Positions 22,077-26,360 of a stretch of 40,880 nt of DNA are shown here, in pieces. Both the position numbers and the translations under genes were made by a program. Each line of letters opens with the position of its first letter. Position 1 is the first letter of the stretch. Location of the stretch: IMG/VR virus record IMGVR_UViG_2563366819_000005. One strand, given 5' to 3'. This stretch comes from a virus (Duplodnaviria > Heunggongvirae > Uroviricota > Caudoviricetes). The notes below the pieces were generated by a model, which made no database searches, was not told where the DNA came from, and saw only the letters and a program-made list of their open reading frames with translations.

Positions 22077-22868
22077 ATGAGCGAGAAATTAAAGATAGTC
22101 TATCGCCCATTACAAGAATTGTCACCGTATGCGCACAACGCCAGGACGCACAGCCCTGAGCAGGTGGCACAACTGGTAGAAAGTATTAAGCAATTCGGCT
22201 GGACTAATCCGGTGCTGATTGACGAAAAGGGCGAAATTATTGCGGGTCACGGTCGTGTTATGGCGGCTGAAATGCTCAAAATGGATTCTGTTCCGGTCAT
22301 TGTTCTGTCTGGCCTGACGGATGAGCAGAAAAAGGCGTACCGCCTGGCAGATAATCGCCTGCCGATGAATGCTGGCTGGGATGAAGATCTGTTGCGGATG
22401 GAGCTGTCGGACCTAATCAATGCTGATTTTGATGTCTCCCTGACAGGCTTCATCCCGACAGAAATTGATGAACTGTTGACGGATGTTTTGCCCGGTACAG
22501 GAAATGAGGAGGAGCCGTATACGACGAAAATTGATACGCCTGTTTATGAGCCGTCGGGCGGTAAACCGGATATCAGTGAACTGTACGACGATACGAAAAC
22601 TCAGGAGCTGATCAGCCGGATACGTTCGGCGTCCCTTGAGCCTGATATTGAGAAATTCCTCCTGTGTGCGGCAGAACGTCACACGGTGTTTAATTTCAGC
22701 AGAATTGCGGACTATTACGCTCACGCCCCCTCTGAAATTCAGTGTTTTTTCGAGGAGTCGGCGCTGGTGATCATTGATTATCAGCAGGCTATTGAAAATG
22801 GATTTGTCCGGATGACGCAGCGCATGGTGGAGATCATGCATGGTGGTGAGGAGGAGGAATATGCGTGA
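22077..22868 (+). CDS. ParB N-terminal-domain (ParB/Srx-like) nuclease-domain protein, 263 aa
   Basis: Motif VLIDEKGEIIAGHGRVMAA matches the ParB/Srx signature (IAG-[EH]-[RG]-R). Located upstream of the packaging genes. Confidence 0.7.
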   Translation: MSEKLKIVYRPLQELSPYAHNARTHSPEQVAQLVESIKQFGWTNPVLIDEKGEIIAGHGRVMAAEMLKMDSVPVIVLSGLTDEQKKAYRLADNRLPMNAGWDEDLLRMELSDLINADFDVSLTGFIPTEIDELLTDVLPGTGNEEEPYTTKIDTPVYEPSGGKPDISELYDDTKTQELISRIRSASLEPDIEKFLLCAAERHTVFNFSRIADYYAHAPSEIQCFFEESALVIIDYQQAIENGFVRMTQRMVEIMHGGEEEEYA

Positions 22869-23793
22869 TGATTTTTGCGCCTTTATTCTGACTCACGGGC
22901 GACCGGACAAAGTTCTGACTTACCGGACGTTGCGTCGTGCTGGCTATACCGGGAAAATTTTTATCGTTGTTGATGATGAAGATAAGACACGGAATCAGTA
23001 CATGGCTGAATTTGGTGAACAGGTGCTGGTGTTTTCCAAAGCCGATATCGCCAGTCGTTTTGACGAAGCCGATAATTTCTGTGACCGCCGCTCAATTTTT
23101 TACGCCCGTAATGCCTGTTTCGACCTGGCAAAACTGGTCGGGTGTAAATACTTCATTCAGCTCGATGATGATTATCACGAGTTCCAGTTTCGGGTGGATC
23201 GCAACTATGACCAGGCCTATTTTCCGATAAGGAAACTGGATGCGATCCTTTCTGAAATGCTGGCGTACTACGAATCAATACCTGCTCTTTCCATCGCTAT
23301 GTCGCAGGGCGGGGATTTTCTTGGTGACAATGGCGGCCATGCTTCGTGGGTGAAACGCAAGGCAATGAACAGCTTTATCTGTTCGGTTGATCGACCGTTC
23401 TCATTCATGGGGCGCATTAACGAGGATGTGAATACGTACACGAATCTCGGTCGCTGTGGTGAATTGTTTATGACGATCGGTGCTGTCCAGTTAGGGCAGA
23501 AACAGACGCAGAAAAACAGCGGCGGAATGACCGAGCTGTATCTGGATTCCGGAACCTACGTTAAAAGTTTTTACTCCGTCATGTATGCGCCGTCGTGCGT
23601 AAAAATCTCACTGATGGGTGCCAGCCATAAACGCATTCACCATCAGGTCACCTGGAACAACGCTGCAGTAAAAATCCTTCACGAAAAATACAGGAAGAAG
23701 ACACCCTGCATATCAATGGGGGTGACAAATGATTCCGTATTCGAAAGTCGAGTCTCTGGCAGCGTGCCGGATGACTGCACAACAAATCGCTGA
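22861..23793 (+). CDS. Hypothetical protein with a DxD-type motif (FIQLDDDYHEF); possible GT-A-like transferase
   Basis: GGAGGAGG SD before the ATG at 22861. Overlaps the ParB-like gene by 8 nt. Function not recognised. Confidence 0.45.
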   Translation: MRDDFCAFILTHGRPDKVLTYRTLRRAGYTGKIFIVVDDEDKTRNQYMAEFGEQVLVFSKADIASRFDEADNFCDRRSIFYARNACFDLAKLVGCKYFIQLDDDYHEFQFRVDRNYDQAYFPIRKLDAILSEMLAYYESIPALSIAMSQGGDFLGDNGGHASWVKRKAMNSFICSVDRPFSFMGRINEDVNTYTNLGRCGELFMTIGAVQLGQKQTQKNSGGMTELYLDSGTYVKSFYSVMYAPSCVKISLMGASHKRIHHQVTWNNAAVKILHEKYRKKTPCISMGVTNDSVFESRVSGSVPDDCTTNR

Positions 23794-23980
23794 CGTTCTG
23801 GATGTTGATCTGAACCGACTGAAAGAAAATCGGGAAGCAATGACAGATTTTTATGCGGCCATCCGTAAGGGCAGAGCGAAAGGTGAAGCCGAGTTACGAG
23901 CGGCATTGTTTAAGCTTGCCAGAAAAGGGGATGCCTTTGCTCTGCGCGAACTACTCAGGGTGGATAAAAATCAGGACTAA
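23729..23980 (+). CDS. Small HTH-like protein upstream of terminase (83 aa)
   Basis: GGGGTG SD 5 nt before the ATG at 23729. Helix-rich; MTAQQIADVLDVDLNRL resembles an HTH. Confidence 0.4.
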   Translation: MIPYSKVESLAACRMTAQQIADVLDVDLNRLKENREAMTDFYAAIRKGRAKGEAELRAALFKLARKGDAFALRELLRVDKNQD

Positions 23981-23983
23981 CTG

Positions 23984-25078
23984 ATGAGCAGACCGGACTG
24001 GGGGGCGTTGCAGCAGGAGTATATTGCTGAATACACCCGCTCCGGTATATCTCCGGTGGCATGGTGTGAAGCAAGGGGACTGAATTACGCAACAGCCCGT
24101 CGTTACATCAAAAAAACTCCGAAAAATGCGCAGACAGAAATGTGCAAAACTGCGCAAAAAAGTGCGCAGAAAAAATCTGCGCAGACTGCACAAAAGCGGA
24201 ACGAAAAATCTCAGGAAAAAAAGCCAGTATTCGATGCGGGCCTGAATGAGGGCGACGCGGAGGAATTTTCGTTCTGTCCCGATGAATTCGGCATTTCTGA
24301 CCAGCAGGCTAAGTTTGCGATGCTTGTTGCTCAGGGTAAAAAGCCGACAGAGGCGTACCGACTAGCCGGTTATGAGGGGCAAGGTGCGACAGCTAACAGC
24401 AACGCCAGTCGTATGCTTAGAAATGCCAGGGTTTTTCGCGCTATCAGCTACTTCCGCAATCAGTACCAGAAACGCTATACCGCAGACCTGGATTTACTAG
24501 TGAGTCAGTTGATGGCTATTGTCCTGGCCGACCCCAATCAGCTTGCACAATTTCGCCGTGTTAACTGCCGTTATTGCTGGGGCGAGAATCATCTCTACCA
24601 GTGGCGCGATATAGCAGAATTCGACAAGGCAGCGGCGCAGGCTTCCAGAGATGGCAAACCCGAACCGGAATATGGAGGCCTCGGCTTTGTTGATAACGCC
24701 ATACCCAATCCGGACTGCCCGAAGTGCTGCGGTGAGGGAACGGGACAGCTTTATATGGCTGATACCACTCTGCTTGATGGGGATGCGCGGCAATTATATG
24801 CAGGGGCAAAATTCGGAAAATTCGGCGTTGAGATCCTGCTGGAGGATAAGGCTGCCGCCCGGCGTGAATTGTTGCGTTTGTTTTCTGCTGGCGGGGCTTT
24901 ATGTGCAGATAAACGGCTACAGGAACTGGAAATTGAACGGCGCAGAATGGAAAACCAGAAGCTGCGCAAAGAGATCGAAACGGTGGAAGATAATGAACAT
25001 CCCCAGCCTGTGGCGATCAATATTAATGTGGTTGATGCCAGAGTAAGGAGTGATGAAGATGATCTCTCCGACGCTTAA
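23984..25078 (+). CDS. Terminase small subunit (364 aa)
   Basis: Central segment AKFAMLVAQGKKPTEAYRLAGY...NASRMLRNARV is typical of TerS proteins. Cys-rich C-terminal region. Immediately upstream of TerL. Confidence 0.7.
   Translation: MSRPDWGALQQEYIAEYTRSGISPVAWCEARGLNYATARRYIKKTPKNAQTEMCKTAQKSAQKKSAQTAQKRNEKSQEKKPVFDAGLNEGDAEEFSFCPDEFGISDQQAKFAMLVAQGKKPTEAYRLAGYEGQGATANSNASRMLRNARVFRAISYFRNQYQKRYTADLDLLVSQLMAIVLADPNQLAQFRRVNCRYCWGENHLYQWRDIAEFDKAAAQASRDGKPEPEYGGLGFVDNAIPNPDCPKCCGEGTGQLYMADTTLLDGDARQLYAGAKFGKFGVEILLEDKAAARRELLRLFSAGGALCADKRLQELEIERRRMENQKLRKEIETVEDNEHPQPVAININVVDARVRSDEDDLSDA
24124..24197 (+). repeat. Six TG(C/T)GCA-centred direct repeats at 9-15 bp spacing inside terS; candidate pac/TerS recognition site
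   Basis: aaaTGCGCAgac, aaaTGTGCAaaac, aacTGCGCAaaaa, aagTGCGCAgaaa, atcTGCGCAgact, gacTGCACAaaag. Encodes the repetitive peptide AQKSAQKKSAQTAQK. Confidence 0.35.
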
Positions 25079-26360
25079 TGTGCCTCAGGCGCGATTTCTT
25101 TCAATGCCCCATAAATTTAAAGCCTATATTGCTGGTTTTGGCTCGGGCAAAACATGGGTTGGGTGTGGCGGCATATGCAAGGGGATTTGGGAGCATCCAG
25201 GTATAAATCAGGGATATTTTGCGCCAACGTATCCCCAAATTCGCGATATTTTTTACCCTACAGTGGAAGAAGTTGCTGCTGACTGGGGATTGAACGTAAA
25301 AATTAATGAGGGAAATAAAGAGGTTCACTTTTATTACGGACGCCAGTATCGGGGAACCACTATCTGCAGATCGATGGAGAAGCCACAAACGATCGTCGGT
25401 TTCAAAATTGGTAATGCGTTGGTGGATGAACTGGACATTTTGCCGAAGGAAAAAGCCAGAACGGCGTGGCGCAAGATAATTGCACGTATGCGTTATAAGA
25501 TTGATGGACTTCGCAACGGTATTGACGTTACAACCACGCCGGAAGGATTCAAATTTGTCTACGAGCAGTTTGTTAAAGCCGTGCGTGAAAAAACAGAGCT
25601 GGCCTCACTGTATGGTCTGGTGCAGGCATCTACTTTCGATAATGAAAAGAACCTGCCAGCAGATTACATTCCTTCGCTTCTTGAATCATACCCTCCAGAG
25701 CTGATTAAAGCCTATCTTCGAGGACAGTTTACTAACCTGACAAGTGGTACTGTTTACCATCAGTTTGACCGGAAACTGAATAATTGCGAAGAAGTGGAGC
25801 AGCCAGGGGAGCCGATTTATATTGGGATGGATTTTAACGTTGGAAAGATGGCGGGAATCGTCCATGTGCTGCGTTTGGGGCTTCCATGTGCGGTAACTGA
25901 AATCATCAATGCCTACGATACGCCGGATATGATCCGCATCATTAAAGAACGCTTCTGGCTGTATGATGGGAATGATTACCGGAAAGTGAGGGAAATTTAT
26001 ATTTATCCAGATGCTTCCGGGGATTCCAGAAAATCAAGTAACGCAAGTACGACGGATATAGCCCAGCTTAAGCAGGCTGGATTTAACGTTGTGGTGAACA
26101 GCTCGAACCCGCCAGTAAAAGATCGCGTTAACTCAATGAATGCAATGTTCTGCAATGCCAATGGTGAGCGTCGCTATAAAGTTAATGTGAAGCGTTGCCC
26201 GTTATATGCCGAATCTCTGGAGCAACAGGTCTGGGATGAGAAGGGGGAGCCTGATAAAAAATCTGGCAATGATCACCCGAATGATGCCGGAGGTTATTTC
26301 ATCGTTAAGCAATTCCCTATTGTCAAACCGACCGGAAGAGTCACATCACTTCGGATTTAA
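25053..26360 (+). CDS. Terminase large subunit (ATPase plus nuclease)
   Basis: Walker A YIAGFGSGKT near the N-terminus. AAGGAG SD upstream. Size and position follow TerS. Confidence 0.85.
   Translation: MKMISPTLNVPQARFLSMPHKFKAYIAGFGSGKTWVGCGGICKGIWEHPGINQGYFAPTYPQIRDIFYPTVEEVAADWGLNVKINEGNKEVHFYYGRQYRGTTICRSMEKPQTIVGFKIGNALVDELDILPKEKARTAWRKIIARMRYKIDGLRNGIDVTTTPEGFKFVYEQFVKAVREKTELASLYGLVQASTFDNEKNLPADYIPSLLESYPPELIKAYLRGQFTNLTSGTVYHQFDRKLNNCEEVEQPGEPIYIGMDFNVGKMAGIVHVLRLGLPCAVTEIINAYDTPDMIRIIKERFWLYDGNDYRKVREIYIYPDASGDSRKSSNASTTDIAQLKQAGFNVVVNSSNPPVKDRVNSMNAMFCNANGERRYKVNVKRCPLYAESLEQQVWDEKGEPDKKSGNDHPNDAGGYFIVKQFPIVKPTGRVTSLRI

Follow-up and report, generated by a model that had tools for sequence, protein, structure and literature searches.

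The pac site of phage P1 is a 161-bp element within pacA that contains seven TGATCA/G hexamers with Dam sites, a site for integration host factor (IHF) and a central cut (PMC10028697, PMC11260489); the HEX4/HEX3 description of this site goes back to Sternberg and Coulby 1987 and Skorupski et al. 1994, as relayed in PMC10028697 and PMC11260489. Synonymous mutation of the P1 hexamers reduces the P1 titre about ninefold (PMC10028697). The pac signal of P22 lies within the coding sequence of its small terminase gene, gene 3, as a single 17-nt consensus motif (PMC11260489). The pacL and pacR sites of SPP1 have no common sequence and are recognised largely by DNA shape (PMC4856287). The element considered here is an array of six TGCGCA-type hexamers inside the small terminase gene (terS) of a 40,880-bp stretch of viral DNA (IMG/VR record IMGVR_UViG_2563366819_000005, Caudoviricetes), the whole of which is referred to below as the window. 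The window is a Rac-like lambdoid Escherichia coli prophage, and a 100%-identical copy is present in enterotoxigenic E. coli (ETEC) H10407. An initial annotation had put the array forward as a candidate pac site, a proposal now backed by comparative inference (conservation at the DNA level and co-variation with the N-terminal helix-turn-helix (HTH) domain of TerS) and by homology to the P1 system. The array is probably the pac recognition site, in the form of a one-armed, Dam-site-free variant of the P1 type associated with a chimeric TerS that joins a PacA-like HTH to a Terminase_2 protein, because the hexamers are conserved independently of reading frame, co-vary with the HTH, and share their layout and the homology of the adjoining domain with P1 pac.

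The hexamer array and its conservation

Four exact TGCGCA hexamers and two copies with one mismatch are present in 66 bp of the window terS (Table 1), with start-to-start spacings of 14, 10, 12, 15 and 9 bp. This agrees with the 9–15 bp given in the initial annotation, which had also correctly placed the periodic hexamers inside the small terminase gene. Its count of six TG(C/T)GCA copies holds for five plus-strand matches, while the sixth (TGCACA at 24187) fits this motif on the minus strand only, and its term 'direct repeats' is empty at the hexamer level because TGCGCA is a palindrome. TGCGCA occurs at 19 positions in the 40,880-bp window, and the Poisson expectation is ~6e-5 for four copies within 57 bp and ~3e-7 for six degenerate sites within 66 bp. 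In 1000 first-order Markov simulations, neither four exact copies in 60 bp nor five degenerate copies in 66 bp ever arose, and a three-hexamer pattern that occurs once in the window was found in none of 100 shuffles. The flanks of the array are A-rich on both sides on the coding strand; eight A4-7 tracts lie in 24110–24222, spaced by ~12 bp or multiples of ~12 bp, and the extended site consensus is approximately AAAAnTGCGCArA. Sites with no more than one mismatch to TGCGCA are not enriched in 24200–24700, and extra downstream TGCGCA copies are found in a few relatives (L033, L040, L041 and L043).

The peptide encoded by the array includes ...NAQTEMCKTAQKSAQKKSAQTAQK..., and five of the six copies in the window allele share one frame, NNT GCN CAR, which encodes X-A-Q. 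The repetitive peptide described in the initial annotation is therefore real for these five copies of the window allele, but the hexamers of relatives lie in three frames and encode unrelated peptides. Hexamer 2 is in a different frame from the other copies and is read in relatives as ATG, TTG or GTG (NTG) followed by CGC AAA, that is, M/L/V-R-K. Klebsiella phages with ~42% amino-acid identity carry six TGCGCA copies in 58 bp in three frames, with the codons ACT GCG CAA (T-A-Q), CTG CGC ACT (L-R-T) and AAG TGC GCA (C-A).

Relatives of the window terS, whose TerS starts with a PDWG...TARRYIKK domain, comprised 122 loci (77 unique) from Escherichia, Klebsiella, Enterobacter, Citrobacter, Providencia, Pantoea, Erwinia, Serratia and other genera. 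Between three and nine TGCGCA copies were present in terS nt 100–330 of 76 of the 77 unique sequences, at a density of 0.022 per bp, compared with 0.00052 per bp for the remainder of the loci, a 42-fold difference. The copies were distributed over the three reading frames (308, 70 and 12 copies). Synonymous codon resampling, carried out for each protein, gave an expectation of 42.9 TGCGCA against 390 observed, a ninefold excess, and among the 76 hexamer-bearing sequences there were just three for which a resample reached the observed number, each in 1 of 500. X-A-Q was encoded as NNT-GCG-CAR in 295 of 321 cases in the linker that carries the array, compared with 58 of 216 elsewhere in terS.

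Among 34 E. coli-type alleles, whose consensus is six perfect TGCGCA, variable columns amounted to 5 of 36 in the hexamers and 35 of 92 elsewhere in the linker. Outside the hexamers, codon positions 1 and 2 of the linker were as variable as position 3, which shows that the peptide is not what is conserved. All six TGCGCA were present in four of the first six diverged E. coli alleles examined (84–94% amino-acid identity). The codon before hexamer 5 is TCT, CCT, ACT or TTT in relatives, with the third-position T kept and positions 1 and 2 varying. On this comparative evidence, the hexamers are maintained by selection on the DNA itself and are not a by-product of an AQK peptide. Alleles close to that of the window are common: at least 99% identity over terS nt 1–417, array included, is found in about 549 of 892 matching E. 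coli genomes, and 17 retrieved loci do not differ from the window in the first 330 nt.

Table 1 Position of terS, the hexamer array and neighbouring features in the window
Feature	Position	Strand	Description
terS	23984–25078	+	364 aa; Pfam Terminase_2 PF03592, E 3.7e-8; PHROG 51
N-terminal three-helix HTH of TerS	23984–24115	+	Residues 1–44; related to the P1 PacA N-terminus
Low-confidence, poorly conserved linker	24116–24277	+	Residues ~45–98; its DNA carries the array
A-rich context of the array	24110–24222	+	49% A
terS array	24124–24197		Sequence AAATGCGCAGACAGAAATGTGCAAAACTGCGCAAAAAAGTGCGCAGAAAAAATCTGCGCAGACTGCACAAAAG
Hexamer 1, TGCGCA	24127–24132		Codons AAT GCG CAG (N-A-Q); no variation in the 34 E. 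coli-type alleles
Hexamer 2, TGTGCA (window allele)	24141–24146		Family consensus TGCGCA
Hexamer 3, TGCGCA	24151–24156		Codons ACT GCG CAA
Hexamer 4, TGCGCA	24163–24168		Codons AGT GCG CAG
Hexamer 5, TGCGCA	24178–24183		Codons TCT GCG CAG
Hexamer 6, TGCACA (window allele)	24187–24192		TGCGCA in most relatives
Insert in Terminase_2 core	24566–24745		TerS residues 195–254
terL	25050–26360	+	Terminase_6N/6C; overlaps terS by 29 nt
ParB/Srx-like gene	22077–22868		Pfam ParB_N; between trkG and terS
TET-associated glycosyltransferase (TAGT) homologue	22840–23793		PF20691, E 8e-35; phrog_842 'beta-glucosyl-HMC-alpha-glucosyltransferase'
Small open reading frame	23771–23980		Longer reading frame from 23729; directly 5' of terS; phrog_309 positions 145–218 of 319, E 8e-23

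The N-terminal domain of TerS and its relation to motif classes

TerS is composed, in this order, of a PacA-like HTH, a linker, an SF6/SPP1-type Terminase_2 DNA-binding domain and a core with a CxxC...CxxC insert. An AlphaFold (AF2) model of modest quality (mean predicted local distance difference test score (pLDDT) of 51), usable for domain boundaries only, contains helices at residues 6–20, 24–30 and 35–42 (pLDDT ~70–80), which form a three-helix bundle of residues 6–42; pLDDT is below 50 for residues 44–93, after which the Terminase_2 domain begins. The hexamers coincide with the DNA that encodes this low-confidence linker, which is Lys-rich and predicted to be disordered. Residues ~99–185 are homologous to G1P of SF6/SPP1, including its HTH DNA-binding domain (PDB 3zqp, E 1.8e-9; also 4zc3 and 2cmp; range E 1.8e-9 to 2e-6). 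Since the Terminase_2 homology starts only at about residue 99, the first ~98 residues, comprising the HTH and the linker, represent an addition. The HTH DNA-binding domain of the SF6/SPP1 type is accordingly not located at the N-terminus of the window TerS. The insert in the Terminase_2 core has an invariant CRYCW...CPxCxGxG pattern, with four Cys arranged as in a zinc ribbon, and has no counterpart in the part of SF6 G1P that was aligned.

The N-terminal domain matches PHROG 1711 (phrog_1711; E 4e-5 for the full protein and 1e-4 for residues 1–69), the archetype of which is P1 PacA (E 4e-202). A profile-to-sequence alignment with hhalign paired TerS residues 6–44 with PacA residues 3–41 over 39 columns (84% probability, E 8e-6), and BLASTP of the TerS N-terminus against PacA gave E 0.001, with a common helix ...LN..TARRY(I/L).... 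The HTH of residues 1–44 is proposed to be the reader of the hexamers.

TerS relatives with other N-terminal domains carry other short motifs repeated at the same position of terS. The 'PEDSGLERDYCAG...GWVR' class, a pattern represented by six loci from Enterobacter, Serratia, Rouxiella and viral contigs, has three to five copies of GTACGCA in two frames together with one inverted TGCGTAC. The 'DWGAIRREYETDG' class has two or three copies of GTTTCCAC followed by two or three copies of the inverse GTGGAAAC, and the peptides read from the two orientations, V-S-T and V-E, are unrelated to each other. One locus carries a TCCGTCC/GGACGGA array, and a Yersinia phage carries four copies of TGCGAAT. 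Such findings point to a general organisation of HTH plus array across TerS classes. Class-specific arrays, some of them with orientation switches, were observed at terS nt ~125–210 in ten loci (L017, L053, L056, L150, L153, L154 and L156–L159).

Comparison of the individual TerS domains with those of the window revealed that carriers of TGCGCA have 61–75% identity in the HTH (residues 1–44) and 27–40% in the Terminase_2 DNA-binding domain. Carriers of unrelated motifs (GTACGCA, GTTTCCAC and CGAACC), by comparison, have 18–27% identity in the HTH, with higher values in the Terminase_2 domain (37–49%) and the core (up to 61%). One TGCGAAT carrier (L008), with 61% identity in the HTH and 52% in the Terminase_2 domain, is an exception. 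Motif identity thus follows the N-terminal HTH and not the Terminase_2 domain or the core, as would be predicted for an HTH that reads the sequence.

Genes adjoining terS

The annotated order in ETEC H10407 is trkG, the ParB/Srx-like gene, a hypothetical gene (TAGT-like by Pfam), a small open reading frame, terS and terL, followed by a DUF4055 protein at the portal position, a minor head protein, a P22-type coat protein and lambda-like tail genes; the DUF4055 protein is the annotated portal in a Klebsiella relative. TerL is the presumed nuclease and motor and would cut near the array. Terminase_6-type large terminases are usual for headful phages. The ParB/Srx-like gene and the TAGT homologue may form a DNA-modification or moron module, and no TET/JBP or cytosine methyltransferase gene adjoins them. 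The small open reading frame directly upstream of terS matches the middle of phrog_309, a small-terminase family other than that of the window TerS. It recurs 5' of terS in several N-terminal classes (the E. coli type, L016, L153, L155 and L157–159) and is not encoded within 2 kb upstream of terS in any Klebsiella-type locus; it may encode an accessory factor for packaging or be what is left of a gene.

In the ETEC H10407 copy, frameshifts are annotated in the genes for the replication protein and the tail tube, and some carriers of this prophage are probably defective. Escherichia phage Rac-SA53 (KU052037) has a terS at 1351–2379 that is annotated as a gpO-terS fusion by deletion. Its TerS is without the N-terminal HTH, no exact TGCGCA is present, and the one-mismatch remnants TGCGCT and TGCCCA are left; the homology breakpoint lies inside the array, at about window position 24136.

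The array as a pac site and its relation to known packaging systems

If the array is the pac recognition site, each TerS subunit would carry an extra PacA-like HTH (residues 1–44), flexibly tethered to a ring of the SF6/SPP1 type, and several of these HTHs would bind the six hexamers in the DNA that encodes the very same linker. The A-tracts between the hexamers may allow the DNA to bend or wrap on the TerS oligomer, and TerL would thereby be positioned for a first cut nearby, from which headful packaging would start. The binding, the bending and the position and direction of the cut are what we infer from the arrangement described above.

Several explanations that do not involve packaging were considered. 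The array could be a cis-regulatory element, either an operator through which TerS or another phage protein controls terS and terL or an mRNA structure that tunes translation. An autoregulatory operator would be compatible with the conservation of the DNA and its co-variation with the HTH, and the RNA of 24100–24230 has a folding energy of -31.4 kcal/mol (z = -3.97 against shuffles) and an 8-bp hairpin, TGCGCAGA/TCTGCGCA. However, a low folding energy is automatic wherever palindromic hexamers are grouped, the differing spacings among subfamilies leave no one hairpin conserved, and the non-palindromic direct motifs of other classes, such as the three to five GTACGCA copies, cannot pair with each other. 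Moreover, no promoter-like site was found in 23300–25300, and in P1 the homologous arrangement is a pac site that has been defined by experiment, so that a regulatory role is unlikely. A minus-strand terminator-like hairpin at 24183–24163, TGCGCAGATTTTTTCTGCGCA followed by a T-run, was set aside as a by-product of the palindromic hexamers 4 and 5 and an A-tract; it is lost with the Klebsiella-type spacing. It is extremely improbable that the repeat is the mere footprint of a low-complexity, basic AQK linker peptide that arose by slippage or duplication and has no function in the DNA. This would account for the shared X-A-Q frame of five window copies in a Lys-rich, predicted disordered region, but not for hexamers that encode T-A-Q, L/M/V-R-K/T and C-A in three frames, for a third-position T that is kept before hexamers while positions 1 and 2 vary, or for the ninefold excess over synonymous expectation. 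The peptide between hexamers is free to vary, and inverted motif copies in other classes encode different peptides; the peptide-repeat explanation was rejected on the strength of the frame-independent conservation of the hexamers.

The hexamers might instead be bound by another protein, namely the upstream ParB/Srx-like protein, the product of the small TerS-like reading frame, a host factor or a restriction-modification enzyme. ParB-like, TAGT-like and small TerS-fragment-like reading frames do lie directly upstream of terS, and TGCGCA, which contains GCGC, is the site of the type II restriction enzyme FspI. Yet the array is kept in three inspected Klebsiella and Yersinia records in which no ParB- or TAGT-like gene is annotated within 1.5 kb upstream, no gene other than terS is invariably found with the array and the motif tracks with the N-terminal domain of TerS, and a restriction target clustered in one gene would be disadvantageous and not selected. 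A different reader is therefore quite improbable, and the small TerS-like reading frame was rejected as a required one, being missing from most loci that keep the array. The array might also be the relic of an earlier pac site or repeat that has lost its function in a possibly defective prophage. The two mutated hexamers of the window allele are compatible with decay, as are the frameshifted replication and tail-tube genes of some carriers (ETEC H10407) and the lost TerS N-terminus of Rac-SA53; on the other hand, near-identical alleles are shared by the majority of matching E. coli genomes and by the 17 identical loci noted above, four perfect copies are left in the window, and relatives with only three or four copies are common, which makes a relic very unlikely. 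Plasmids were searched for copies of the array outside terS and none was found, but the query may have been masked by the low-complexity filter.

Several observations weigh against the interpretation of the array as a pac site. Two of the six copies are degenerate in the window allele, and no second TGCGCA cluster was found within ~700 bp of the array, the next TGCGCA being at 24963. The array is one-armed with six copies, whereas arms of four and three hexamers flank the cut in P1. The window hexamer TGCGCA is without the GATC of P1 TGATCA, so that timing control by Dam cannot apply to the array; the nearest GATC within terS is at 24832. A scan with the IHF consensus WATCAANNNNTTR, limited to consensus matching, gave no match near terS. 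The initial annotation had spoken of phased repeats, and short repeats are indeed present in terS, but hexamer spacing in relatives is irregular (7–16 bp) and shows no strict helical phase. The compared terS sequences are phylogenetically related, so that counts such as 76 of 77 sequences or 390 copies are not independent data points and give too strong an impression of independence; neither the use of three frames nor the retained wobble T rests on counting. Motifs other than TGCGCA were picked post hoc as top k-mers, and their individual statistics are optimistic. The relationship of the TerS N-terminal domain to that of PacA, which concerns a domain of ~40 residues, is assigned with moderate confidence from sequence comparison. 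Finally, a literature search yielded no virion ends, coverage steps, footprints or transduction data for this phage family, for which the vB_EcoS records are computational prophage calls and not virion sequences.

To our knowledge, and according to the literature search, no defined pac site is known for the window prophage type or its array-bearing relatives. Of 5426 complete E. coli genomes, 906 contain this prophage type, and relatives that carry the array are found widely in Klebsiella, Enterobacter, Citrobacter, Providencia and further genera. A pac site that can be read from sequence would, if true, predict where headful packaging, and with it the lateral transduction of adjacent chromosomal genes, starts in lysogens, and would offer a handle for constructing transducible plasmids or, through synonymous recoding of the linker, packaging-deficient helpers. 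It would also extend the P1 paradigm of a hexamer array and a PacA-type HTH to the large SF6-like small terminase family, whose natural specificity variants are suited to swap experiments. More tentatively, the first ~250 nt of terS could be a portable packaging-specificity cassette, in which a PacA-like HTH and, directly 3' of its codons, its own hexamer array have been joined to unrelated small-terminase bodies (P1 PacA and SF6-type Terminase_2) with at least five specificities (TGATCA, TGCGCA, TGCGAAT, GTACGCA and GTTTCCAC). If this possibility holds, packaging specificity, cross-packaging and the lateral-transduction potential of enterobacterial prophages would be readable from sequence.

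The small subunit of lambda terminase, gpNu1, reads repeated cosB sites next to or inside its own gene through an N-terminal HTH, and the window would resemble this system in that protein and site travel together as a specificity unit. Lambda differs in being a cos phage with R-sites outside the coding region, whereas the window TerL belongs to Terminase_6; cohesive ends are not expected in the window phage. With P22 the window shares a pac signal, here a candidate one, embedded in the terS of a headful-packaging enterobacterial phage, but P22 has one asymmetric 17-nt motif in place of a repeated hexamer, and P22 was not among the best 60 of 72 tblastn records for the window TerS. The resemblance to SPP1 and SF6 lies in the homologous TerS core, including its HTH DNA-binding domain, and in the A-tract-rich target, which suggests bending or wrapping round the TerS ring, as proposed for pacL (PMC4856287). 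Unlike the shape-read pacL and pacR, the window has a sharply defined repeated hexamer, and G1P is without the extra N-terminal HTH.

The rest of the window TerS is SF6-type Terminase_2 and not PacA-like, and its partner is a Terminase_6 TerL, compared with PacB in P1. The likeness to P1 is found in the arrangement of gene and site. Both systems have several palindromic TG..CA hexamers, with the outer bases in common, inside a small-terminase or pacase gene, and both have the array directly 3' of the codons of the related N-terminal HTH, beginning at nt 143 of the window terS and nt 193 of pacA. The TGATCA/G hexamers of P1 start at nt 193, 200, 212 and 227 of pacA, right after the HTH codons, and again at nt 323, 335, 346 and 374, in two frames, with the annotated pac cleavage sites 275–285 nt into the gene. 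They are kept in a relative with 70% identity that has a different peptide at this place, and synonymous resampling of pacA, used as a positive control, gave 8 observed against 2.6 expected. Copies in more than one reading frame and in excess of synonymous expectation are therefore common to P1 pacA and the window terS.

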